Of a stretch of 64,000 nucleotides of DNA, positions 5,964 through 24,642 are shown one piece after another (within the stretch, counting starts at the first letter, position 1; each line of letters opens with the position of its first letter). Location of the stretch: contig CAVZTH010000043.1 of the NCBI GenBank assembly GCA_963778125.1, forward strand, positions 70,760 to 134,759. The letters run 5' to 3'. The translations under genes and the position numbers were made by a program. The stretch comes from an uncultured Alphaproteobacteria bacterium. GTDB lineage: Bacteria > Pseudomonadota > Alphaproteobacteria > Acetobacterales > Acetobacteraceae. The notes beneath the pieces were generated by a model. The model did not search any database. It was not told the DNA's origin and worked only from the letters and a program-made list of their open reading frames with translations.

Positions 5964-6084
5964 AGGGGGCCAATCTGAGAAGAAGGACGATCACGCCAAC
6001 GTTTTCACTGCGGCTGCGACGTTGGCCTTCTCGGCCGGGGCGATCCTGTCACGGCCGTGATAGTCCCCCTCCAACCTCCCCGTC

Positions 6085-7481
6085 GTGCAAATCGCCTGGA
6101 GTGGATCGGCACCCCGGAGCCAATCTACAAACCGATTGCCGATCGGCCTCGGAAACAGGAGTTCAGCCATCTCTGAACCGCCAGCACGCGTGTTCCGACT
6201 TTGCTTGGCGCTGATCGTCTGTTCCGCGCTGCAGGCGGTCAGCGGCGCCGCGCATGCGGAGTCCGCGGGAAGAGGGACGAGCGGGGGAGAGGGCGGGCGG
6301 GCGGCGCCCGTCGCGCAGCCTCAGGTCGACCTTGCCGAGCCGGACGACTCGTCCGGCTTCATGCAGGCGATCACCGTCGATCTGGACCGCGTCTACGACC
6401 ATTACCTTGCCTTCAAGGACAAGATCCAGAGAGCGACCTCAACATCCAGGTACTCGATGCCGGTTTCGATGTTCGGCCAATCGGGTATCTCCGAAAAGTG
6501 GTCCCGGTGTTGCCGAAATCGTCTATTTCCCGACAGTCACCTGGACGCCTTTCACCGATACGGCGATGGGCTCGGGCGCCTTCACCTTTAGCTTTCTGGG
6601 CAACCAGTTCTGGACGCACGCGAACACCAACTCCCAGCAGGTCAGTATGGGCCTGTTGACGACCCAGAACGATTGGGTAGCGAACGGCTATCAGTACGCG
6701 CAGATCACCTACACCCAAACATTCCCCGGCGATTGGCTGGCCGTCACCGTCGGCCAGTATTCGTTCGCGTTGGGCGACGGCAATCAATACGCCGGCGATG
6801 CACAGACCAATTTCATCAACTATGCGCTCGCCCAGAATGCCACGCAGACACATGCCAATGCCGGCACCGGTGCCTATGTGCAGATCACGCCGAATAGTGT
6901 GCTGGAGTTTGCAGGTGGCCTGCAAAGCGCCACCGACGTCACTGGGCACGCGCTGACCACCAATGGCTTCGGCGACGGCAAAATCGCCTATGGCCTATTT
7001 GGACAATGGAAGCCGACCTATCTGGCCGGCGGCGCGTACGGCATTCTGTATTACGATCAGCCGGGGGTGCCGCAGCAACCGAGCGCGTCCCAAGGGGTCT
7101 CCTTCAACGCCGTGCAGAATCTGAACGCGAGATACGGGCTGTTCCTGAGAGCGAATAACGCGTCGGGCGCCGCGAGCCCGATTGAGACGTCGGTGGCGTT
7201 CGGTGGAATTGTGAATAACCCGTTCGGGCGCAACCGGCTCGACCAAGCCGGCATCGGCCTCGCCTGGGACAAGACCAATACATCGGCTGCCCCCACGCCA
7301 GCGCGGGGTTCGGAATGGGTGGGTGAACTCTATTACAATTACACGGTCTCAAGGCTACAATTACACGGTCTTCAAGGCGATGCAGTTGACACCGGACGTG
7401 CAGGTCTATGTGAATCCCGCGCTCGCCCCCAACACTAGCGTGGCAGCGGTGTTCTCGCTGCGCGCCACGTTCAAGAACTGA
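6085..7481 (+). CDS. Carbohydrate-selective porin, OprB-like (frameshifted; start uncertain)
   Basis: Signal-like ALQAVSGAAHA, QTNFINYALAQN, RYGLFLRAN, EWVGELYYNY, and C-terminal LTPDVQVYVNPALAP...VFSLRATFKN* (TGA 7479-7481) in a shifted frame. Confidence 0.75.
7334..7378 (+). repeat. Tandem duplication of 22/23 bp inside the porin gene
   Basis: tacaattacacggtctcaaggc (7334-7355) is immediately followed by tacaattacacggtcttcaaggc (7356-7378). Confidence 0.9.
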
Positions 7482-7648: not shown

Positions 7649-10600
7649 ATGTCAATCGAAGCACCTGCCTTTCCTGGGCCTTTCGCCGCCTTCGCGGCAT
7701 CGATCATGGGGCAGTCTCCACTGCGCGCGGCCATCACGGCCCAAACCCGGGTAGACGAAGCCGAGTGCGTTGCGCGGTTGCTTGAGACGGCGACCCTGCC
7801 GAGCCTTGCGGTCGTGCAAGCAGAAGTATTGGCGCGCCGTCTGGTGACTGCCCTCCGAGCGAAAGGTACCCAGGGGGCGGTCGAAGGGCTGATGCGGGAA
7901 TATGCGCTGTCGAGCGACGAGGGCGTCGCGCTCATGTGTTTGGCCGAGGCGCTGCTCCGCATTCCCGACCGGGCTACGCGCGACGCCTTGATCCGCGACA
8001 AGACCACCAAGGGGGATTGGCAAAGTCACGTTGGCCACTCGCCGTCGATGTTTGTCAACGCCGCCACTTGGGGGCTTCTCGTGACCGGCAAATTGGTCGC
8101 CACCAACAGCGAGGTTGGGCTTGCGGGCGCACTGGCCCGGCTGATCGCGCGTGGCGGCGAGCCGGTGGTTCGCAAGGGAGTCGATATCGCGATGCGGATG
8201 CTGGGCGAACAATTCGTTTCCGGGCGAACGATCGCCGAGGCGTTGGCGAACAGCCGCCGCCTCGAGGCCCGTGGCTTCCGCTATTCCTACGACATGCTCG
8301 GTGAAGCCGCGCTGACGGCGACTGATGCTTCTCGTTACTATAACGAATATGAGCGGGCGATCCATGCGATCGGCGCATCGGCTGACGGCCGTGGTCTCTA
8401 CAGGGGACCGGGGATCTCGATCAAGCTTTCGGCTTTGCACCCACGCTATTGCCGAGCGCAGCGGGACCGGGTGATGGCTGAACTGCTGCCGCGTCTGCAG
8501 ACGCTGGCAGTGCTGGCGCGCCGTTACGACATCGGCCTCAATATCGATGCCGAGGAAGCGGACCGGCTGGAGCTCTCGCTCGATCTTGCTGGAAGCGCTG
8601 TGTTTCGACGGGCGGCTTGGTGGCTGGGATGGCGTGGGCTTTGTGGTTCAGGCCTATCAGAAGCGTGCGCCGTTCGTGATCGACTTTCTGATTGACCTCG
8701 CGCGCCGCTCGGGCCACCGGTTGATGATACGCCTGGTGAAGGGCGCATATTGGGACAGCGAGATCAAGCGTGCGCAGGTGGATGGGCTTGAGGGGTTTCC
8801 GGTGTTCACCCGCAAGGCACATACCGATGTTTGCTATCTGGCTTGCGCCCGCAAGCTTCTGGCCGCTCCGGCAGAGGTGTTTCCGCAGTTCGCGACGCAT
8901 AACGCCTATACAACCGCCGCTATATACAGCATGGCGGGCGGCGATTTCCAGTTTGGCCAATACGAATTCCAATGCCTGCACGGCATGGGCGAGCCCCTGT
9001 ATGAGGAGGTTGTGGGACCTGACAAGCTTGACCGGCCCTGCCGGATCTACGCTCCGGTTGGCTCGCACGAGACGTTGCTGGCTTATCTGGTGCGCCGGCT
9101 GCTGGAGAACGGGGCCAACTCGTCGTTTGTCAACCGTATCCAAGATCCATCGGTCTCAATCGAGGAGCTGGTGGCCGATCCGGTCGCGTTGGTCGCTTCG
9201 GGGTCGCCGATTGGCGCGCCGCATCCCCGCATTGTGCTGCCTCGTGCGTTGTTTGGGGCCGAGCGGGCAAACTCCGCGGGCGTTGATCTGACGAACGAAC
9301 AATGCCTGGCGGATCTCGCGCGCGCCGTGACAGCCCCCCAAGCCTGGAGCGCGGCGCCCATGCAGGCCGCCGGTGAGGCTTCGGGGCCGCGCAAGGAGGT
9401 TCGTAACCCGGCGGATCACCGTGACCTCGTCGGCTATGTTACGGAGGCCGTGGCGGAGCAGGTGGACCAAGCAGTTGCCGCCGCCAGGGCGTGGGACGCG
9501 ACGGCGCCGGGCGATCGCGCCGCGTGCTTGTTTCGAGCCGCCGATCTGCTGGCAACACGGATGGCGCAATTGATCGGGCTGATTGTGCGCGAGGCTGGCA
9601 AAACCTTTGCGAGCGCGGTTGCCGAGGTGCGGGAGGCGGTGGATTTCTTGCGTTATTATGCGGCGCAGGTGCGTGACCATTACCCGGCGGGCAGCCACAC
9701 GCCGCTTGGAATCGTCGCGTGTATCTCGCCATGGAACTTTCCTCTGTCGATCTTCACCGGGCAGGTCGCGGCGGCGCTGGCGGCTGGCAACGCCGCGCTT
9801 GCCAAGCCTGCCGAGGAGACGCCGCTGATCGCCGCACAGGCGATGGCGATCCTTCGCGAAGCGGGGGTTCCCGTCGGTGCGGCTCAACTTCTTCCCGGCG
9901 ATGGCGAGGTCGGCGCTCGGCTGGTCGCTGATCCACGGGTTCAGGGGGTGATGTTCACCGGCTCGACGGAGGTTGCCCGGCTGATCCAACGTCAACTCGC
10001 CCTGCGTCTGACGGCGGATGGGTCGCCGGTGCCCTTGATCGCGGAGACAGGGGGGCAAAACGCCCTTGTCGTCGATTCCTCGGCGCTGGTCGAACAGGTG
10101 GTGACCGACGTGATTACTTCCGCGTTCGACAGTGCCGGACAGCGCTGCTCGGCGCTTCGCGTGCTGTGCCTGCAGGAGGACGTGGCGGATCGGGTCCTGG
10201 CCATGCTGAAGGGCGCGCTGGAGGAACTTAGGGTGGGCAACCCGGACAGGCTGGCGACCGATGTGGGCCCGGTTATTTCGCCGGCGGCGCGCGACCGGAT
10301 TCTCGGGCATGTCGAGGCGATGCGAAGGAGGGGCCGAGCGGTTCATCAGTGCGCGTTGTCGCCCGAGGCTGTGCTGCACGGGACGTTCGTGCCGCCGACG
10401 ATTATCGAGATCGAAAGCCTGTCGGAGCTTCAAGGCGAGGTGTTCGGGCCAGTGCTGCACGTGGTTCGGGTGCCCAGGGACAGGCTGGAAGCGGCGGTCG
10501 AAGCGGTGAATGCCACCGGCTATGGGTTGACCTTCGGGGTGCATAGCCGGATCGATGAGACGATCGGGCGGGTTACCGCTCGCAGCACGGCGGGCAATGT

Positions 10601-11273
10601 CTACGTCAACCGCAATCTGATCGGCGCAGTGGTGGGGGTGCAACCTTTTGGCGGGCATGGCCTGTCGGGAACTGGGCCGAAGGCGGGCGGCCCGCTTTAT
10701 CTCCGCCGGCTGATGCGGCACGGACCGGCTGCCATGCCACTGCCGAAGGGGCGGCCGCCCGCGGCGGCGCGTGCGTGGCTGGCTCTTAGCGACGGCTCCG
10801 AGGCGGGGCGGGAATTTGGTCGGTCGGTCTTGGCGGGAACGCCTGCCGGGGTGGCGATGGACCTGGTGGGTCCCGTTGGAGAGCGCAATGAATACTCCAC
10901 GATCCCGCGCGGGGCGGTGGTTTGCATCGCCCCGGATCGAGAACAGCTTATGGTCCAGGTGGGTGCGGCGCTGGCGACGGGCAACCGGGCGCTGATTGCC
11001 GTGGGGGCGCTCGGTGGGCCGCCCCCATTGGACGATATCCTGGAGGTGCCGGATGTCCTGCAAACGGGTTGCGACGCCGTGCTGTTTGCAGGGAGCCGTG
11101 TTGATTTGCTGGCGATCGCGCGGAGACTGGCCGACCGGGAGGGCCCTATCGTGCCGATCTATCTCGCCGATCCCGACGGGCGCTACCCGTTGGATTTTCT
11201 GGTGCGGGAGCGCTGCGTCAGTATCAACACGGCGGCGGCGGGCGGCAACGCGAGTCTGATGACAATCGGATAG
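7649..11273 (+). CDS. putA: Bifunctional proline dehydrogenase / P5C dehydrogenase (frameshift near 8585)
   Basis: EGVALMCLAEALLRIPD, YSYDMLGEAA, GISIKLSALHPRY, RLVKGAYWDSEIK, FATHN, ISPWNFP, AETGGQN, SAGQRCSALR, C-terminal INTAAAGGNASLM. Confidence 0.96.
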
Positions 11274-11305
11274 AGAGGCCTGACCATCGACTGTTCAGGA
11301 GAACG

Positions 11306-12220
11306 CTACGGGTTCAGCGGTCCGCCCAGCCTTGCTTCTACCTGAGTGGAGAGGTCGACAAGTCGTGAGAGAAACCTCTCAAGTATGGGCGATTTGTTTG
11401 CCTTGTGAAATCCTAGCACCAGATCAATCATCGGCTTTTCTCCGGCCAGAGAACGGCTGACGATTGATGGCGGCAGGTAGCTGTCGATAGAAGCCGGCAA
11501 CAGCGCGACGCCTCCCGTAGATCCAACCAGAGAAATCGCCATGGCGAAATTATCGATTTCGAGATGCGGTGTGATGCGCACGGCCGATCGATCAAGATAC
11601 TCGCTGACGACACTGCGCAGTATGCGGGGTACAGATGAAATCCCGATAAAGGTTTCGCCGATCAGGTCGCGTGGATCGATGGACTCGCGCACCGCAAGCC
11701 GGTGATCGCGCGGCAGGATCGCGACCAGCGGTTCTCTGACAACTAAGCGGTATTCGAGATTTGGGTTTGGTTCGCGCCGCAGGAATGCCATGTCGAGTTT
11801 CCCGCGCAGAAGATCGTCGGCGAGATCGGCGGAGAACCCGCTGAAAACCCGGACTTCGAGGTTGGGCAACTCGTCCCGGAGTGTGTTCGTCGTGGGCGGG
11901 ATGCAGTCGACCTCGTGGCCCGTCAGAAAGCCGACGGCAAAGACCGGCTTTGCGGGATGTGCGATGCGCCGAGCGGATGCGACCGCGGCTTCCGCCTGCG
12001 CAAGCGACAGCCGCGCGTGATCGAGAAAAGCCCGGCCGGCCGGGGTGAGTTCGATACCCCGCACGCTGCGCTGAAAAAGCTTTGCGCCGACCTCAAGTTC
12101 GAGATCGCGGATCTGTCGGCTGAGTGAAGGCTGCGAAGTGTGCAACCTTTTCTCGGCCGCGAGGTTAAGGCTCCCCTCTTCGGCGACGGCGATGAAATAG
12201 CGAAGATGCCGGAGCTCCAT
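11306..12220 (-). CDS. LysR-family transcriptional regulator (HcaR-like)
   Basis: MELRHLRYFIAVAEE...SQPSLSRQIRDLE HTH; divergent from the SDR gene. Confidence 0.93.
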   Translation of the reverse strand: MELRHLRYFIAVAEEGSLNLAAEKRLHTSQPSLSRQIRDLELEVGAKLFQRSVRGIELTPAGRAFLDHARLSLAQAEAAVASARRIAHPAKPVFAVGFLTGHEVDCIPPTTNTLRDELPNLEVRVFSGFSADLADDLLRGKLDMAFLRREPNPNLEYRLVVREPLVAILPRDHRLAVRESIDPRDLIGETFIGISSVPRILRSVVSEYLDRSAVRITPHLEIDNFAMAISLVGSTGGVALLPASIDSYLPPSIVSRSLAGEKPMIDLVLGFHKANKSPILERFLSRLVDLSTQVEARLGGPLNP

Positions 12221-12329
12221 GACCGCTTTTATGCCTCCTGAGCATACCCTTCACCTTACAAAGTCTTATTCACCGCGGCCAGCGTGGCTTAGATCTGTCC
12301 TCGAAAGATCCGGGCTTGAGGAGTTAAAA

Positions 12330-13070
12330 ATGGCAAACCTGACCAACAAGATAGCGCTTGTCACCGGCGGTTCACGAGGCATTGGCGCGGGAATTGCCAA
12401 GCGGTTGGCGGCCGACGGCGCGAGCGTGGCGATCACCTACACCAGAGGCGCGGAAGCGGCGGCCTCGGTCGTGAACGAGATTGAACGTGACGGCGGAAAA
12501 GCCATCGCGATTCAGGCCGATGCCACCGATGCCAAAGCCGTCGTGGGCGCAGTCGAGAGGACCGTCGCGGCGTATGGCCGGCTTGACGTGTTCGTCAACA
12601 ATGCCGGTACGGCAATTCCGAAGCCATTCCTGGAGACGACGCTGGAGGAGTTGGATCGCATGATCGAACTCAATTTCCGTGGCGCTTTGATCGCGACCCA
12701 GGCGGCGTTGCGGCAGATGGAGGACGGGGGTCGCATCATCATGATCGGCTCCTGCGTGGGAGAGCGCATGATGACGCCCGGCCTGGTTGCTTACGCGGCC
12801 ACGAAAGGCGCCATCAAGATGTTCACGCAGGGGTTGGCCCGAGAGGTTGGGAGCCGTGGCATCACAGTCAACAATATCCAACCGGGTCCTATCGACACGG
12901 ACTTGAATCCCGCCGCGGGCGAATGGGCGACGCCACAAATCGCCCTCACGGCGCTCAACCGTTATGGCCGGGTTGAAGAAATCGCCGCCATGGTGGCGTT
13001 CGTCGCGGGTCCGGAGGCGGCGTACATAACGGGCGCGAACCTGACCGTGGACGGTGGGACGAACGCGTGA
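12330..13070 (+). CDS. Short-chain dehydrogenase/reductase
   Basis: TGGSRGIG, NNAG, YAATK, PGPIDT, ITGANLTVDGG; ATG at 12330 after GAGGAG. Confidence 0.93.
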   Translation: MANLTNKIALVTGGSRGIGAGIAKRLAADGASVAITYTRGAEAAASVVNEIERDGGKAIAIQADATDAKAVVGAVERTVAAYGRLDVFVNNAGTAIPKPFLETTLEELDRMIELNFRGALIATQAALRQMEDGGRIIMIGSCVGERMMTPGLVAYAATKGAIKMFTQGLAREVGSRGITVNNIQPGPIDTDLNPAAGEWATPQIALTALNRYGRVEEIAAMVAFVAGPEAAYITGANLTVDGGTNA

Positions 13071-13109
13071 TTTACGAGGTGCGATCGCGATTTGTCGGGA
13101 TTTGGCCGC

Positions 13110-13215
13110 TTCGGCAAGCGCCTTGCAGACACTGAACGGCTTGTCGGCTGCGGCCACACGATCGCCGATATCGCAATCCTTCCCACGGTATGGCGGCCTA
13201 TCAAGGGCTGGCATT
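13110..13215 (+). pseudogene. Possible remnant of a glutathione S-transferase (YghU-like) C-terminal segment
   Basis: Translates as KRLADTERLVGCGHTIADIAI then, shifted, FPRYGGL..GW, resembling the GST motif xRLAxxxYLAGxxYTIADIAIxPWYGGL. Short and degenerate. Confidence 0.4.
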
Positions 13216-14503: not shown

Positions 14504-16055
14504 CTACCCTCGGGGGTCCTCGCGCAGCCGGATCATGGTCCACGACGCCGCCGGCAGCGTCACCTTGGCTCGGTCACCAAACATCGTGATGCCATCTAGA
14601 GGTTCGGGAATCACTCGGTTTGGGTATTCGGCGGTGTTGACCGCGGCCAGGTCGTCGTGCCGGAGTACCTGTGCCTCGGTCAATGTGAGCGGGCCGAAGC
14701 CGGACAGCGCGACCTCCAGCGGCATCGCTTCGTCCAGGCTGCGATTGATCGCAAACATGGTGACGTGGCCGTCGTCCGTCCGCACCGCGCCCAGTTTCAG
14801 ATAGGGGGCGGTGACCGGGTAGTATTGATCGATATCGCCGCGCGGGTCGAAGTAGCGGGCGTTGTAGCATGGTGAGTTGATCGTGGCGCGCAGCACCTGG
14901 CCGCGGCCGTGGCGGCTCCATTGCGCGAAAGGCCAGAAGATGGTTTGGCGCCAGGCCGGTCCGCCGGTCCGCGTCATGATCGGGGCGATGACATTCACCA
15001 ATTGCGCGAGGCAGGCTGTTGTGACGCGGTCGGCATGGTTCAGCAGCGCGATACAGGCGCCCCCGAAGGCCAGCGCATCGGCCATGGTGTAGAGTTCCTC
15101 CAGGATCTCCGGCGCGACGGGCCAGCCGGGCTTTACCCGATCAGCCTGTTTGCGGCGGGTTCGGTACCAGACATTCCACTCGTCGAAGCTCAGCATGATG
15201 CGTTTCGAGGAGCGCCGCCGAGCCGCGACGGCGTCGGCGATGGCTGTGACTTCCTCGATGAAGTTGTCGATGAGATCAGGGCTGGCAAGAAATGCCGCGG
15301 TGTCGCGGGCATAGTCGTTCAGATAGCTGTGCAGCGAGATGTAGTCGACGTGATCGAAACAATGCTCCAGAACGGTATCTTCCCAGGCGCCGAATGTCGG
15401 CATGTTGCGGCTGGAGGAGCCGCACGCGGCGAGTTCGATCGAGTTGTCGATCAGTTTCATCATTTTGGCGGCCTCGGTGGCAAGGCGGCCGTATTCGGTG
15501 GCGGTTTTCGCCTCCATCTGCCATGGGCCGTCCATCTCGTTGCCGAGGCACCAAAATCTGATGCCGTGCGGCTGGTCCCAGCCATGGGTGCGGCGGAGGT
15601 CGGACAGCGTCGTGCCGCCGGGATGGTTGCAGTATTCCAGCAGGTTGCGGGCGGCATCGCCGCCGCGGGTGCCGAGGTTGACCGCGAGCATCGGTTCGAC
15701 AGCCGCGACGCGGCACCAATCGATGAACTCGTTGGTGCCGAACTGGTTGGTCTCGGTTGAGAGCCAGGCCAGTTCCAGCCGGCGAGGCCGCTGCTCGACC
15801 GGGCCGACGCCGTCTTCCCAGTTGTAGCCGCTGACGAAGTTGCCACCCGGGTAGCGGATGATGGTGGGTCCCAGTTCACGCACTAGTTCCAGGACGTCCT
15901 GGCGAAAGCCGTTGGCGGTCGGCGGTGGGATGGCCGGGCTCGAAAATGCCGCCGTAGACGCAGCGGCCCAGATGCTCGACGAAGGCACCGAACAAACGGG
16001 GGTCGGTGCGGGCGATCACCGCTTCGGCGCGGAGTTGCACGGTGACCTGACGCAT
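14504..16055 (-). CDS. Alpha-L-arabinofuranosidase, GH51 (frameshift near 15918)
   Basis: N-terminus MRQVTVQLRAEAVIARTDPRLFGAFVEHLGRCVYGGIFEPGHP from ATG 16055; RYPGGNF, WCLGNEMDGPWQ, SFDEWNVW, AQLVNVIAPI. Confidence 0.93.
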
Positions 16056-16698: not shown

Positions 16699-17903
16699 TT
16701 AGACGCTGGCGCCTTCGATCAGGTCGCCGAAGCGCACCCAGGTCTTGCCGTCCCATTTCTGGAACTGCATCGCCTTGATCGGGCGATGGTCGGTTGGGCT
16801 GGTGTTGATCTTGATGCCGGGCAGCAGGATCGGGTTTTCCATGTCGTGCAGGTTCTCGGCCTGCCGCATGACGTTCGTACGCGAGAAGTCGCCTTTGCAC
16901 TGCTTGAGCACCTGCAGCATGGTCGTGCTGATGCCGTAGGCGAAGACCGTGGCGGCGTCGGTGGTGTCGCCGTCCGGCAGGTACTTGGCCATGAAGGCGC
17001 GCCACTGCTTCATGTCGGGATCGTCTCGCCATGACGGGTCGGTGGGATCCTTCAGATAGTTGCGTGCTCAAGCAGGCCGATGGCCTTTTCGGGTCCGGCG
17101 GGCTGCATCACCGTGCCGACCGAGATCGCCACGTTGGTCATGAAGAAGGTCGGCTTCCATTGCAGGTCGTAGACCTTGCGGATCGCCTGGGCGGCGAATT
17201 TGGGGATGGCCGCGACGAGCAGCACGTTGGCGCCGGAGCCTTGCAGCTCGGCGATCTGGGACTCGATGGTGGCGTCGGTGGTTTCGTAGCTGACCGATTT
17301 TACTACGATCTTGTCCCAGTCATCGCCCAGGATATCTTTGACGCCGATGGGGTAGTCCTTACCGAAGTCGTCGTTCTGGTAGAGGATTCCGAGCTTCGGG
17401 TTTTTGACGTTGGCGAGGATGTATTTGGCGTAGATCTGGGCCTCGGTGCGGTAGTTCGGCTGCCAGCCCATGGTCCAGGGATATTTCTTGTAGTCGCTCC
17501 ATTTACTGGCGCCGGAGCCGACGAACAGTTGCGGCACGTGCTTGTGGTTCATGTATTCGGCGACGGCGGAGTTGGTGGGGGTGCCGAGCGTCTGGAAGGT
17601 GAAGTCGACCTGGTCTTCCTCGACGAGGCGGCGGATCTGCTCGACGGTCTTGGGCGGGCTGTAGCCGTCGTCGTAGGAGATGAAGTCGATCTTGTGGCCG
17701 TCGACGCCGCCCTGGTCGTTGATCATGTTGAAGAAGGCGGCCTCGGTGTGGCCGATGACGCTGTAGGAGGAGGCTGGCCCGCTGTAGGGCATGGTGTTGC
17801 CGATTTTTATGGATGTGGGGGTGACGCCTGGGGTTTGGGCTTTTGCTGTGGGGACGAAGGCGGCGGTGGCGGTTGCGGTTAGGATGGTCCGACGCTTGAT
17901 CAT
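16699..17903 (-). CDS. ABC transporter substrate-binding protein, branched-chain amino acid (LivJ-like) family (frameshift near 17065)
   Basis: Tat-like KRRTILTA, IKIGNTMPYSGPAS, YDDGYSPPKTVE, LYQNDDFGKD; C-terminal LLPGIKINTSPTD...WVRFG in ORF 16699..17013. Confidence 0.9.
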
Positions 17904-18194
17904 GCTTTGTTCTCCCGGTTCGTTGTGTGGTTTTGCGCTCCCTGCGGGCGTTCCGGGGTGGCCCGGAGGCCAGCGGCGGGAGGGTGCGCTTTTGGGTGGG
18001 GGCGTGGGGGTCACGAAGACGGGAGGTGGGGTGCTGCCGTCAGAGGTTGAGTTAGGGTGGATCACTGGGCGAGTGCGCTCAGGGCCCTCTTCCTCGGTGG
18101 TGGGGCGACCCCAGCAAAGATCACTCTTGTTTCCTCGCGCGCCGGCGGTCTAGTTTGCTGTTAAAATCAGGATGGAAATGCAACCGTGTCAAAC

Positions 18195-18478
18195 ATGATT
18201 TCAGTCATTGTGACGAAAAGCGACCCTGCAAAGGGCATATTCGACACCGGCCCCTTGATGTCTGTCGAAATTCCCGTGGAACGGCTGAAAGCCGCCTATC
18301 TGACTTGGTGGCCAAGTTGAGAGCTGCGACTGTAGAATTGGCCGCGAAGGCTGATGGCTTATCTCTCAAAGAGCTTGAGGTTGGCATTGAGGTCACCGCT
18401 GAGGGCGGCGTGAGTTTGATAGGAAGTGCCAAAGCAGGTGGGACTGCTTCGCTCAAGCTAACTTTCGTTCGCGACTAA
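18195..18478 (+). CDS. Small Pepco-like (peptidase co-occurring) protein (frameshift near 18290)
   Basis: Reconstructed MISVIVTKSDPAKGIFDTGPLMSVEIPVERLK / SRLSDLVAKLRAATVELAAKADGLSLKELEVGIEVTAEGGVSLIGSAKAGGTASLKLTFVRD*. The C-terminal L-x-E-x-E-V...A-E-G...G...L-x-F pattern matches my recollection of Pepco/Trypco partner domains. TAATG overlap with the caspase gene. Confidence 0.6.
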
Positions 18479-21400
18479 TGAGCCGTCGTGCACTACTATT
18501 GGCGATCGCTGACTACGATCCCTTACAGCCGCTAGGCTACGTAAGTAACGATGTTCCGCGGCTGAGTGCTGCGTTGGCGCGTGCAGGATTCGAACCGAAG
18601 AATATCATCGCGGCGGGAGCTGGAGCCGGCGAGACGCGAGTTCGGGAGCTTACCACCACTCGACTGCGCGAGGCGATTGGGGACTTTCTGGACAACGCCG
18701 ACACGCAGGACGATATGCTCCTGTTCTTTTCGGGCCATGGAATTGAAATCGAAGGCCGGCGTGTATTTTTGCCCCAAGACTTTACGCCAAGGCGGCCCGG
18801 TTCGGCAACGGACCTAGTCAGCGATAGCTGGATTTCCGTATATGCCCGAGCCTGCAAAGCCAGATCGGTTGTAGTGACTTGTTGATGCGTGTCGAGAAGG
18901 CGCGCGCTACACACTTGCGCCAACCAAGTCAACGTCGTTCGAAGAGGCGGACGACGACATCCCACTAAAGAACCAGTACGGTGGGGAAGCAACAGATGCC
19001 CCAACAGTCGGTTTCCTTTACAGTTGTGCATCGGGCGAGAGTAGTGGGCGTGATCATCAGGGGGCCGATTGCAGCGCCTTCACCCGCGCGTTCGCCGAAG
19101 CGATCGAGCTCGAAAATGGCCCCGCAGAGCTGGAAGGCGTTTCTGCCGAGGGCGTGCCGCCGGCTTAACAGTTATGGTAAGGGGGAGCAGACGTTCACTG
19201 CTTCCGGGCGACACGGCCGAGGCGGGCCGTGGCATCAGCTTGTGATAAAGGAGGACGAAGCAGCGCGGTTCCGCGATCGGATCGCCCGGTCTCGTTGGTC
19301 GGTACGGCTTCACTCAGTTGAACCTCTTCCCCCAGTTGGAAGCAACCCTACCGGCGTTCGCGACACAACTGCGTGCGATTGCCATGCGGGCAGAAGAGCA
19401 GGTGACAGAGGCCGGTCGCGTGTTGCCGATTTAGCGGTGGCACGACGAGGATGCCTGGTACAGGCAGGCCGCGCGGGTTCAATATGTGTTCCTTCACGCT
19501 TACGGGGGAGGTTTGCCAGCTGAAGAGATTGCTGTGCTTTTGGCCGTACCGTTTGTTTACGAAGCCGTGCTTGCGGCGGCGGAAATTCGTCTCGTAGCCG
19601 CTGGGGCAATGCCCGATCCCGAAGTTGCTTCTGGCTCTGGCTATCTGGTTAATGCCTGGCGCAATGCTTGGCGTGAGAGCGATGCGGCGCAGATTAGGCG
19701 TAGCCTTCTTGCCCGAAATAAGCACGATGAGGCTGATGATCAGGCTTGTTGGTCACTCGTCAATTTTTGCCACACCTTTGGCGAACTATGGGATGCGCAC
19801 CGCGATTCCCAGGATCGTAGTGGGTGGGCATTGGAGACAGTCGTCGCCGTAGTTGCTCCAGCTCCACTACCTGAGGTCACGCAAGATCATCGTGTTTGCG
19901 AGATTTTGAGCGTGCCGCGTCTACTTCGGCTGGCACGGCTAATGCACACTACTTTCGATGATGTGACGCTCGATGCCGCTGGTGGCCATCGGCTGCTTGA
20001 AGCGCAGGTCAGCAGCGGCGAACTGGCAGAGCAGCTTACTATCAGCGAGGTTAGGCTAGCGCACCTTCTGAATCTCGGATCACGCTTGGCACTGGATTTA
20101 AGACGAATGCCGCCGCTCATGGCCGAGCATGTTGGCACTGACGACGTGCTATCGGCGGCCTGGCTCCGCAAACACTTGGCTGGTGCTGAATGGCAGGTGC
20201 GCACGACTGAGGGAGACAAGCTCGGCCAGGAGGCGCGATGGTTTGATCTCAAACTCGACTGCGCGAATGACGCAGTGGACGCAGCGTTGTTGTCGGTAGT
20301 GGATGCGCTGGAGAACTACAGGACTCGATTGTTGCAGCGTCAAGACATACACGCAACGTTGATGAGGAGCCTTCTTCCGGCAGGATTTACGGCCAATCGA
20401 TTGAATTCTGCGCCGAGCGGCTGGCATCCGACCCGCCCGCCATTGCGCTTTGAGTTGGACCGTACCCGTATCATCAACCTACTAATGGGTCAGCAACTGT
20501 ATGGCGAAAGATGGCCGGCGCTACGCGAGCTATATCAAAACGCGCTGGACGCATGTCGCTATCGCCGAGCTTCGGAACAACTCGCGGTGAGCGAGGGGCG
20601 TTGGCGGCGGGGTAGTATATACGTCGGACAAATCGCGATTTGGTTCGGGGCCAGTGCGGGCCGCCGCTTCATCGAGTGCGTAGACAACGGTGTCGGGATG
20701 GCCGACCGCCACATACGTCGGCTGTTCGCGTACGCAGGGCAGCGATTTGTTGATAGCCACGAATTTCATATCGATCAAGCACGGTGGGATGTAGCGAAAA
20801 TAAAATTTTATCCGAACAGCCGTTTTGGAGTGGGAGTTCTGAGCTACTTCATGTTGGCAGAGGAACTCGACATCGTCTCGCGCCGCTGGGCCGCGCCGAC
20901 AGATTTCCCTTTCCGGCCCCGTGCGGGCCCGCATTATTGGAAGCGGTAGTCTATTTCGTCTGGAGTCCACGATTGATCCAACGCGTCTATCGGATGACTA
21001 TGGAACGTCCGTTCGAACTCTATCTTCGCGAGGACGCACCAGAGAATGACGCTCTTCACAACTCAATTCTCGATTGGCTTGCGCTACCTGAGACGGCGGT
21101 GGTCCTCAGCCAAGATGGGGGTGAACCACTGCATTTGGCCGCAGGCCAGCCCACCCAATCTCTCAGAGCCGAGTGTAACGAAAGCTTGCTGGCGATTCCC
21201 GGATCGGAAGGAATAAACGGTGCGGCGAGAGTTTTTCTTTGCCCTTACCGTTCTCTGGGTGAGATCCCTACGAGCTTCGCGTTAGTTGATGGGATCAGAA
21301 CAAGACTGGCGGATCAACCCTGGCTAGATTCCCTTGTTGTCAATCTTACCGAGGACCTACCTAAGTCGTTGACGGTTGATCGTCGTTCCGTCGGCGCAAG

Positions 21401-22963
21401 TGATGAAACGATCCGGGCAGTCGAAGGGTGGGTTCGAAAAAGGGCAGGGTCAGTGACTCGCTACGTGGAATGACCCGGACTTTGCAGCGCTCCATTGGTA
21501 CTCTGCACGATCTTCACCCCGATGCTGCCGCTGTTGCGGACGCCACGCTCAGAGCCAGCGAGGAAGCCACTCCAACGGTAATGCTGCCGGGATCCGAGGT
21601 AAGATGGCCAATCCGGAATGCCGGACTGTCCAGTATCGACCCGGACATCGCCTGGGATGTGCTGGTAGCTTCGGGCCTCGCCATCGATGAAGTCTGGGGA
21701 TTGGCGGACCGACCCGAGCCTAAATTTGCTCTGCAGGTTCGTGCTTTATTCAATCTGAGCCTTAGGGGTCCACGAGTTCGTTCCACCCCGTTACGTCTGC
21801 AATTATGTCATCCCGAGCAAGTGAGCTTTCGGAAACGGGGTTGGACTTTCCTGGATGGCTCGGACACGCTGTGGCATTCGAACAGAGCGGCAGGCGCTTG
21901 AGCTTTCCGAGAGCGTGTGGACCGTTGGTTGCTGAACTGGAGAATTTTGGTATCATCGGTGTACGCGAAGTCCTACGGTGGACTGATTTAGACCATGGCC
22001 CTATACTCGATGCGATGAAAGAACTAATAGGTCAGTTCCCTGGCCTAATAAGTTTTGATCCGGAAAATCTCAGTAACCTTGGACCATTACATCGGCGACT
22101 ATGCAGTCTTTCCTCTGGCAATCGACTTAGCTGGGTTGAGATGGCCTATTTTTCACAAACTGAAGGATTGTCGCTAGAGCAAGCCAACTCGATTGCGAAT
22201 GAACTGTCAAATTTCGGAATTTCGATTTCCGACCTGGTCGAATTGCCAGAAAACATTCGACTTAGTGAACCGGAGTTGCAGCTCCTATCAGCATTCTTTC
22301 GGCGTGAGGCGGCATCGGTACATCCTAAGCAACGGTTGCTGACACGATTGCGCCGCTTCGCGGAAACTGGCTACTCCCCTTTTAGCATTGGTGTAGCTTT
22401 GGATATAGTAAGTTCGGTTAAAAGGCTTCTGACGAAAGGCGACAACGCGAACGGAGAACGTTCTTTGGCGCTCGAGCGGCTCCAAGGGACTTTGCTTTCC
22501 GAGGATTTCGGCAATAAAGCCCCCTATCTACCCTGCGTAAGCCCTCTGCAGATGTTTAAGGCCTCGCGAAATCGCGAGTTTGGGAGCTTCGTCCGAGTGG
22601 CTGAGGTCGCGCGGTCACTCGATCCCGCACTCCTTCTCGACAGTCTCGCGAGCTCACTGGACGATTCGCTTTTTGCGCAGATCGACAAGATAACATTGAC
22701 AGACGGTGCCAACGATATTGTCGGACGATTATTCGATGCAGTCGACTGTGGCCGCCCAGCCTCTGTCTGGGATCTAGCATTAGCTGCAACGCTGGCCAAA
22801 TTAAATCCTTACGCCCTCCAACCGTTTCTGTTTTTCTTGGCAAGTTGCGATGGAGATGTCAGAGCATGCCAGGAGTTTATTATCCATTGTCAGCGCTCAT
22901 GACATAGAAGTAGAAGTCCAAAAGGAAAGGGTACTTGTCGCTAATATCCAAGTCGACCTCTGA
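18478..22963 (+). CDS. Large caspase-domain / HD-CE-like helical region / HSP90-like (GHKL) ATPase / helical-repeat protein; multiply frameshifted, possibly a pseudogene
   Basis: Caspase: RRALLLAIADY, LLFFSGHG (His codon 18736), VVLVDACREG after a shift (Cys codon 18890), LYSCASGE...SAFTRAFAEA. ATPase: LLMGQQLY..ALRELYQNALDAC, VDNGVGM, SRFGVGVLSYF, GTSVR/LYLR. C-terminal helical repeats. Pieces are ORFs 18478, 18981, 19486, 20784, 21428, 21805; the end is 22902 or, after one more shift, 22963. Confidence 0.72.
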
Positions 22964-22973
22964 CAGTAGCTGC

Positions 22974-24642
22974 CTACCCATACACCCCGACCCCCTCCCC
23001 TCGCGTCATCCGCTCGACCAGCGGGGTCCCGGTCAGACTGGAAGCCACAGCCTCCGCCACCCTGATCCCGTCCACGCCGGCCGACATGATCCCGCCGGCG
23101 TATCCGGCGCCCTCCCCGGCCGGGAAAAGCCCTTGCGTGTTCAGGCTGTGCCCATCGGCATTTCGAGAAATGCGGATGGGGGAGGACGTGCGCGTCTCCA
23201 CACCCGTCAGCACCGCGTCGTGCATCGCGAAACCGGGGATGTCGCGGGCGAAGTGCCCCAAGGCCTCGCGGATCGCCTCGATGGCGAAGCCGGGCAGGCA
23301 GGCGGCGAGGTCGGCGGGCTGCACGGCCGGCTTGTAGGACGGCACCACCGCGGCCAGCGCCCGCGATGCTCGGCGTTCGAGAAGGTCGCCGACCAGTTGG
23401 GCCGGTGCGGCGTAGGTGCTGCCGCCGGCGCGGTAGGCGCGGCGTTCCCATTCCTGCTGGAAGGCGATGCCGGCGAGCGGGCCTGCGGGGTAGTCGCCTT
23501 GGGTGATGCCGGTCGCATAGTCCGCGGGGCTGACGCCCACGACGATGCCGGCGTTGGCGTTGAACTCGGCGCGCGAATACTGGCTCATGCCGTTGGTGGC
23601 GACGCAGCCGATTTCCGACGTTGCGGCGACGACCCGGCCGCCGGGGCACATGCAGAAGCTGTAGACCGAGCGGCCGTTGCTGGCGTGGTGCACCAGCTTG
23701 TAGTCGGCGGGACCGAGCGTGGGGTGGCCGGCGAAGGCGCCGAAGCGGGCGCGGTCGATGAGGGACTGGGGGTGCTCGATCCGGGCGCCGATGGAGAACG
23801 GCTTTGCTTCGATGTGCGACGCCGCGGCGGTGCAGCATGGCGAAGGTGTCGCGGGCGCTGTGGCCGATGGCGAGGATGACGGCGTCGGCGTCGATTTGGT
23901 CTCCGTTGGCGAGGGTCAGGCCGCGGATGTGGCGGTTGGCGTCTAGTTCGATGTCCTCGACGCGCGACGAGAAGCGGTATTCGCCGCCGAGGGCTTCGAT
24001 TTTGGCGCGGATGGACTCGACGACGGTGACGAGGCGGAAGGTGCCGATGTGGGGTTTGCTGGCGGTGAGGATTTCCTCCGGGGCGCCGGCTTCGACGAAC
24101 TCGGTGAGGAGTTTGCGGGTGAGGTGGCGGGGATCCTTGATGCCGGAATAGAGCTTGCCGTCGGAGAAGGTGCCGGCACCGCCCTCGCCGAACTGGACGT
24201 TGGATTCGGGGTTGAGGATGCCGCGGCGCCAGAAGGCCCAGGTGTCTTTGGTGCGTTGGCGGACGGGCTGGCCGCGCTCGAGGATGAGTGGCCGAAAACC
24301 CATTTGGGCGAGGGTGAGGGCGGCCATCAGGCCACAGGGGCCGGTGCCGATGATGACGGGGCGGCTGCGCGGGGCGGTAACGTGGACGGGGAAGCGGTAG
24401 CTGGTGTCGGGGGTGGGGCGGAGGCTGGGGAAGCGCGCGAGAACGGCGGCCTCGTCGCGGAGGGAGACGTCGACGGCGTAGACGAGGTGGATCGCCGAGC
24501 GGCGGCGGGCGTCGTAGGCTCGGCGGGCGATGGTGAGGCCGAGGAGGTCGTCGGCGGGGATGGCGAGACGGGTCAGCACCGCGTCGCGGAGGGCGTCGGG
24601 CGGGTGGTCCAGGGGGAGTTTGAGTTCGGTCAGACGGAGCAT
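22974..24642 (-). CDS. Uncharacterised NAD(P)/FAD-dependent oxidoreductase (frameshift near 23815)
   Basis: MLRLTELKLPLDH, PVIIGTGPCG, FGEGGAGTFSDGKL, LAIGHSARD, YSFCMCPGG, GVETRTSSP, GEGAGYAGGI. Confidence 0.9.

Follow-up and report, generated by a model that had tools for sequence, protein, structure and literature searches.

What does a low-GC island of two genes do between housekeeping genes of an uncultured bacterium of the Acetobacteraceae, and how would the small protein that it encodes be switched on? The island occupies positions 18195–22902 (about 4.7 kb) of the window, by which we mean the whole stretch of 64,000 nucleotides under analysis (contig CAVZTH010000043.1, positions 70,760 to 134,759 of the forward strand), and consists of a Pepco gene followed by a giant gene in which a caspase, an iHD-CE domain, an HSP90-like ATPase and a tail of repeats are fused. 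On balance, we favour the reading that it is a protease-gated suicide defence, in which Pepco, by prediction, becomes active when its N-terminal strand is cut off by the caspase at a lysine-glycine motif (K↓G, where the arrow marks the predicted cut). This model applies to intact homologues such as the operon at locus L026, not to the window allele as assembled. The features on which it turns are these:

18195–18478, plus strand: Pepco gene, about 94 amino acids (aa), lacking one base near 18293 in this assembly; identified from PF24393, the relative G008, the X5 and X6 contigs and the intact relative L026:7708-7998
18231–18242, plus strand: K↓G-I-F within Pepco's N-terminal extension, where the caspase is predicted to cut, from the motif's position in the sequence
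18476–18480, plus strand: TAATG stop/start overlap coupling the Pepco gene to the large gene, with the same or a near-overlap at homologous loci
18478–19230, plus strand: caspase-like (C14) domain, PF00656 with E 1.5e-10; breaks near 18877 and 19151
18926–18931, plus strand: K↓S behind the catalytic Cys, in the linker of the caspase, where self-cleavage is predicted, from the translation and the motif in homologues

The small gene is identified by PF24393, which matches window 18155–18475 with E 5e-13 (49.9 bits, Pfam cut-off 27). With the frames repaired, the small protein comes to the length listed above and the large one to about 1,470 aa, and their intact homologues measure 97 and 1,454–1,495 aa, in keeping with the sizes proposed by the original prediction, a note drawn up from the sequence alone. 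Pepco tracks the caspase, not the ATPase. When 81 loci were collapsed to 61 distinct ones, 43 carried a caspase (42 with room upstream) and 18 did not; Pepco stands directly upstream at 35 of the 42 caspase-type loci and at none of the 18 caspase-less loci, several of which are cut near a contig end. The expectation that the small gene would be conserved upstream is therefore borne out.

The aligned Pepcos begin with an N-terminal extension of 25–35 residues, comprising a strand, a loop and then Lys (26 sequences) or Met (7) followed by Gly, Ala or Ser, usually as K-G-I-F; this pattern holds in 33/33 sequences, taken from the 35 loci after one frameshifted and one identical copy were left out. 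The same Lys/Met-small motif occurs in 113 of the best 120 Pepco database matches, against 8% in shuffles. Of 87 homologues with a caspase, 65 also have it 7–22 residues beyond the catalytic Cys (background 12.6%), in a linker at which related proteases process themselves. It is probably where the caspase cuts, because a small residue behind a basic one is in keeping with a caspase-family site (R↓G is the cut of LcCaspase in the available text of Evans et al., 2025, and the caspase here has MALT1-like acidic positions), and because it recurs in the post-Cys linker of the caspase and in two unrelated partner genes.

These two genes, both uncatalogued, take the place of Pepco upstream of caspase fusions, one encoding a 272-aa protein (L076:6161-6976) and the other a 118-aa membrane protein (L072:3296-3649). 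Neither product has a Pfam or NCBIfam match; near their N-termini stand TK↓S-I-F and TK↓G, and from these sequences the genes are candidate new caspase-activated effectors. At a third locus a PF24393 match lacks the K-G motif (L116:1480-1881), and the gene beside it has an N-terminal motif that we take to be patatin-like.

The protease itself appears competent in its motifs. Its catalytic His lies in SGHG (18730–18741) and its Cys in DACR (18884–18895), so that both the His-Gly and the Asp-x-Cys signatures are present; in the caspase alignment (A3), H87, D136 and C138 are invariant and D25 nearly so. The closest solved relative is the paracaspase MALT1 (E 4e-11), an Arg-cutting enzyme with which two acidic S1 positions align; these two residues of MALT1 presumably line the S1 pocket. 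Against the EACC1-type caspase model NF047832, the domain scores 67 bits, with a cut-off of 140.

The C-termini of these Pepcos bear on the same question. SsPepco, as described in the available text of Evans et al. (2025; 10.1101/2025.11.14.688446, PMC12642450), forms a 9–10-mer beta-barrel, which turns toxic when the trypsin-like Avs4 protease removes a 20-residue (2-kDa) C-terminal tail after Ile97. The window Pepco ends 3 residues past its last strand, with no C-terminal tail; 2–4 residues separate the last Phe or strand from the C-terminus in 32/33 aligned Pepcos (three of these ends were scored by eye), and 114 of the best 120 database matches end in the same way. A tail with a conserved Ile at the cut, as in SsPepco, is absent from these Pepcos. 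The published C-terminal cut cannot apply here because the proteins stop 2–4 residues after the last strand, a point that the original prediction had missed, although the processing of a small partner by a protease, which it proposed, does have an experimental precedent in that paper. Trypco2 genes served as controls: 8/10 adjoin a trypsin-type motif, 9/9 scored have tails of 17–72 residues, and 9/10 have 3–8 residues before the helix. Like SsPepco, they have a short N-terminus and a long C-terminal tail, the mirror image of the caspase-linked Pepcos. PF19631 (Trypco2) has no match in G000.

How the caspase would be controlled is suggested by the remainder of the fusion protein:

19290–20410, plus strand: iHD-CE helical domain (inactive HD-fold family), PF24401 with E 7e-22, 78.5 bits against a cut-off of 27
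20450–21480, plus strand: HSP90-like ATPase, N and middle domains, from GHKL motifs and the AlphaFold model of P0016; frameshifts near 20910, 21017 and 21456
21480–22902, plus strand: variable all-helical tail with probable, diverged wHTH-HSP90-type repeats, from a home-built repeat profile; frameshifts near 21497 and 21767

No conserved HD pair is found among the invariant columns of the iHD-CE domain. The four GHKL boxes of the ATPase are RELYQNALDA (20524–20553), DNGVGM (20683–20700), RFGVG (20821–20835) and GTSVR (21002–21016); its catalytic Glu, Asn, Asp and Gly boxes are kept, with Glu, Asn and Asp invariant, and the middle-domain Arg of LTVDR (21369–21386) is invariant in 73 sequences. 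The AlphaFold model of the closest allele, P0016 (71–95% identical by segment), has a predicted local distance difference test (pLDDT) score of 88, and its residues 181–523 resemble the N and middle domains of HSP90 (GRP94, Z 22.7, root-mean-square deviation 4.5 over 302 aligned residues; TRAP1, Z 21.7), a likeness also returned by Foldseek. With the Pfam matches, this model upholds the domain names of the original prediction (Pepco, caspase, HD-CE-like, HSP90-like), and its caspase and ATPase boxes, like the TAATG overlap, are all found in place. Identity as the chaperone HtpG was rejected, the scores being far below the full-length NCBIfam cut-offs (50 of 455 and 30 of 371 bits).

The tail is the least conserved region, mean identity over 31 homologues falling from 58% in HSP90-N to 22% there, and it is likely the sensor. 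PF24410 has no direct match in the window tail or in those of the closest relatives. A profile that we built from PF24410-bearing homologues does match the window tail (E 9e-7) and none of the reversed controls. The helical repeats originally noticed thus stand as an all-helical tail whose segments the home-built profile covers, without a match to the Pfam family itself. The large gene ends at 22902 (stop TGA, 22900–22902), short of the end at 22963 first proposed.

The presence of both the N and the middle domain of HSP90 in the model invites a different reading of the trigger, in which the module senses misfolded proteins or general stress rather than a phage product and the island is a stress-triggered death switch. 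The loci are mostly solitary among housekeeping genes, as such a switch might be, and the possibility was raised for DnaK-fused EACC1 systems in the part of Evans et al. (2025; PMC12642450) that was available. We consider it quite improbable, since the score for HtpG is so far below its cut-off, a hypervariable repeat tail replaces the chaperone C-terminal domain, and the exchange of effectors and the patchy distribution would suit a conflict system.

For the protease-gated defence, the causal steps that we infer from gene order, fusion, catalytic residues, the missing tail and the shared motif would run as follows. The fast-evolving wHTH-like tail would bind a product of the invader; the HSP90 N and middle domains would then act as a switch that gathers caspase domains, a part played by STAND ATPases in related tripartite proteins. 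The caspase, going by motif conservation, would cleave itself at the K↓S of its linker and take about 13–16 N-terminal residues off Pepco at K↓G. By homology to SsPepco, the freed Pepco would form a beta-barrel that permeabilises the membrane, and the cell would die. A broader proposal, which we hold with no more conviction than its opposite, is that the caspase-linked PF24393 Pepcos form a second activation class of the most widespread protease-effector module. They would be tail-less pores, unlocked at an N-terminal K/M↓G site that also stands in the caspase linker, and an HSP90-type ATPase would take over the immune switching done elsewhere by a STAND ATPase; such a site would also mark further, uncatalogued effectors of this caspase clade, at L076 and L072.

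Several observations weigh against the protease-gated reading. Pepco is missing at 7/42 caspase loci. The search for the motif left two columns of slack, and the 120 database matches were found with our own alignment. Pepco and linker residues pair as 19 K/K, 3 M/M, 1 M/K and 0 K/M, with 8 unscored, and this matching rests on two label changes on the tree; no S1 residue tracks Lys versus Met convincingly, and one would not expect Met at P1 if the pocket is lined by Asp. The model of the Pepco monomer is of low confidence (pLDDT 58) and shows a helix and strands only, and its fold search matched no solved fold at E 0.001; the weak beta-pore-toxin rows in that search were discounted. Of seven distinct close alleles from the locus scans, five carry one or two frameshifts and two are intact. 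The defence-island setting that was originally proposed is not upheld either: in a PADLOC scan covering 19 loci (128 of 148 candidate neighbour proteins), 6/128 proteins match, four of the six being ABC ATPase or GlgB matches; a plausible defence neighbour occurs at 2/19 loci, the neighbours are mostly housekeeping genes, and PADLOC holds no system model for the fusion itself.

Some of these points would suit a system of the same defensive kind in which the K-G site stays uncut. The motif would then be a docking or folding element, Pepco would be activated by binding or serve as a membrane scaffold, and the caspase would kill by cutting host or phage proteins. The loci without Pepco, the Met at the site in 7/33 Pepcos and the phylogenetically weak co-variation are in line with this, as is an effector-free caspase that protected against phage, reported in the available text of Evans et al. 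(2025; PMC12642450). On the other hand, the linker behind the catalytic Cys and two unrelated partner genes carry the same motif, and Pepco follows the caspase rather than the ATPase; we therefore regard an uncut Pepco as rather unlikely, and continue to favour cleavage.

A search for longer relatives of the fusion returned 1,266 proteins, and the intact ones confirm that caspase and ATPase belong to one protein, as the original prediction held. Its presentation of the architecture as hidden or new was overstated, considering the number of long homologues and the fact that the domains have Pfam families of their own. Among 120 listed of these homologues, PF24401 is present in 119, PF24410 in 74 and the caspase motifs in 87, and the N-terminal slot is filled by caspase, TIR, calcineurin-like, trypsin or HTH domains; the swapping of this slot, together with conservation falling towards the tail, fits conflict sensors. 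The island occurs in 2/77 genomes of the genus, one copy being truncated, while Pepco (PF24393) was found in 3/401 genomes of the phylum and iHD-CE in 1/401 genomes of the class, namely the window's own. Such a patchy distribution agrees with the view that it is not vertically inherited. Viral contigs gave one weak, ATPase-only match among 126 candidates, and plasmids five records, one of them near full-length on a 2-Mb Azospirillum replicon with an insertion sequence (IS) remnant replacing Pepco.

Intact two-gene operons stand at L026 and L037. At L026 the operon (7708–12365; protein P0003) lies between a gene for a 485-aa aldehyde dehydrogenase (5983–7437) and an 86% identical partial copy of that gene (12400–13110), which suggests integration by recombination at the aldehyde dehydrogenase gene; in three close loci (L026, L029, L035) the operon follows such a gene.

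The system is a mobile, solitary unit. The island is AT-rich, as first noticed, with a GC content of 0.559 against a genome mean of 0.623, a value equally low in 1.2% of 1,284 genome windows of the same size, and it is flanked by genes for an ABC substrate-binding protein and an FAD-dependent protein. No terminal repeats were found at the island ends. Its extent is best seen against a relative:

18030–22972, no strand: insertion extent relative to G024, in which these flanks enclose an unrelated sensor-kinase cassette

The variable site is the 3' side of the FAD-dependent gene (window 22973, with matching sites in G001, G003, G008, G009, G011, G019 and G024; L011–L018), and its cargo differs among the relatives read. 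G009 has an NsnB/HEC-03B-like ATPase there. By locus, the cargo comprises an AAA ATPase with DUF3696 and NsnB/HEC-03B matches beside a low-GC partner at L014, a pair of low-GC genes that no Pfam family matches at L015:8184-10632, a gene with a DnaJ domain at L016, a cassette with a PAS kinase at L011 and transposases at L012.

Is the window allele itself functional? As assembled, the two genes hold nine frameshifts and one in-frame stop, so that the original prediction was right that the frames need stitching and understated the damage; it also missed that the allele may be non-functional. One frameshift, at about 18293, lies in the Pepco gene (placed against G008 and the X5 and X6 contigs); eight lie in the large gene, at about 18877, 19151, 19310–19323 (in the iHD-CE region, as is the TAG stop at 19432), 20908–20911, 21017, 21456, 21496–21499 and 21767, placed by frameshift-aware alignment to intact homologues. 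Genes shared with G008 hold 40 frameshifting indels in 39.6 kb, about 1.0 per kb (a count that takes some overlapping frames twice), from which 4.8 breaks would be expected against the nine frameshifts seen (P 0.05). Neighbouring housekeeping genes are frameshifted too (window 16700–17903, 22977–24642 and 15782–16055), and gene calls in this genome should allow for roughly one indel per kb.

Comparison contigs came from the public sequencing runs X1, X3, X5 and X6, whose library type is not on record. The break at 18876 is absent from all four, that at 19309 from X1 and that at 18293 from X5 and X6; an X3 contig spans 18963–19185 free of gaps and shares the extra base near 19151. X1 and X3 are not from an identical strain, because both lack six bases at 18613 that the window has. 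No listed contig bridges the breaks near 20910, 21456, 21497 and 21767, and we disregarded an X1 contig that ends at 21017 with four loose letters, as being too short. X1 and X5 contigs cover the stop at 19432. The first 870 bases recur in G008 at 95% identity, in a copy that breaks off after 18971, within the caspase, beside a DDE transposase gene that is followed by two integrase-family genes; this copy (L013:5532-6400) has a 1-base deletion of its own inside the K-G-I-F codons of Pepco. A similar copy in X6 ends elsewhere, at window 19009.

Part of the damage looks like assembly error, and part may be real decay. That this one allele is a decaying relic, rather than merely a badly assembled gene, is suggested by the extra base shared with X3, by the excess of frameshifts plus a stop, and by the truncated copies in G008 and X6; it is opposed by the breaks that other contigs lack, by the background rate of frameshifts with both flanking genes broken, and by catalytic motifs that are all intact. 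The relic explanation is evenly balanced with its alternative, and we would call it a toss-up whether the allele is truly inactive. It is a poor experimental choice. Phase variation was rejected for the window, the longest runs near the breaks being 2–4 bases; the relative L039 breaks in a C6 run. For the five broken close alleles, sibling assemblies, where there are any, have the same frameshifts, and a protein search added nine further full-length close homologues. In this clade, function seems to be lost often.

These results matter because Pepco outnumbers every other protease-linked defence effector, yet a single, trypsin-linked member of it has been tested. Removal of a tail cannot explain the caspase-linked members studied here, and the K/M↓G motif offers an exact and cheap prediction of their activation, which could also guide a search for more effectors of this clade of caspases. 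The intact operons at L026 and L037 make the HSP90-like ATPase directly testable as an immune switch.

In kind, the system is a known one. Its architecture was already catalogued computationally in Pfam (iHD-CE, PF24401; wHTH-HSP90_Na-assoc, PF24410; Pepco, PF24393), and the prediction of HSP90-type conflict systems reportedly goes back to Nicastro et al., in NAR in 2023. Those systems share the order of effector, iHD-CE, HSP90 ATPase and wHTH repeats; in the close clade of the window, the repeats have drifted below Pfam detection. Our literature search, which reached neither Nicastro 2023 nor an Evans supplement, found no test of the architecture or of phage protection, and no description of an N-terminal Pepco cut or of a caspase site in Pepco. 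In the accessible text of Evans et al. (2025; PMC12642450), no caspase-linked Pepco or HSP90 sensor is tested, and HSP90, HD-CE and wHTH are absent; a word search of the Kibby et al. preprint gave no mention of these domains. The same text of Evans et al. groups Pepco, Trypco1 and Trypco2 together, with serine or cysteine protease partners, while Trypco1/2 are named with trypsin only in the part available of Kaur 2020 (PMC7159879). HSP90-like domains are described as replacing STAND NTPases as switches in tripartite systems in the portion seen of a 2026 preprint (10.64898/2026.10.19.760177).

Tiamat, as far as its available text goes (10.64898/2026.09.30.754977), is likewise a large GHL/HSP90-like ATPase defence protein with swappable effectors, but it has an N-terminal ATPase with DUF3684 and a C-terminal nuclease, whereas here the effector is N-terminal, iHD-CE precedes the ATPase and wHTH repeats follow it; intact homologues gave no Pfam or PADLOC match of the Tiamat type. 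EACC1-caspase (KrAvs12) and alpha/beta-hydrolase-caspase modules, in the same partial account of Evans et al. (PMC12642450), are caspase-gated like the present system and differ in effector fold, EACC1 being freed by removal of an N-terminal beta-containing part or strand. Closest in layout is the SsPepco-SsAvs4 pair described there, in which a small helix and beta-hairpin protein is also encoded directly upstream of a protease-ATPase sensor fusion. SsPepco, however, starts at its helix, has a trypsin-like partner with a STAND switch and is activated by a tail cut, whereas the Pepcos here have an extra N-terminal strand, a K/M↓G site, a caspase partner with an HSP90-like switch, and no tail. 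Known from computation in its architecture, and from one trypsin-linked example in its Pepco pore, the system is new, as read from sequence, in the association of Pepco with a caspase, in its tail-less Pepcos, and in the motif shared between their N-termini and the caspase linker.

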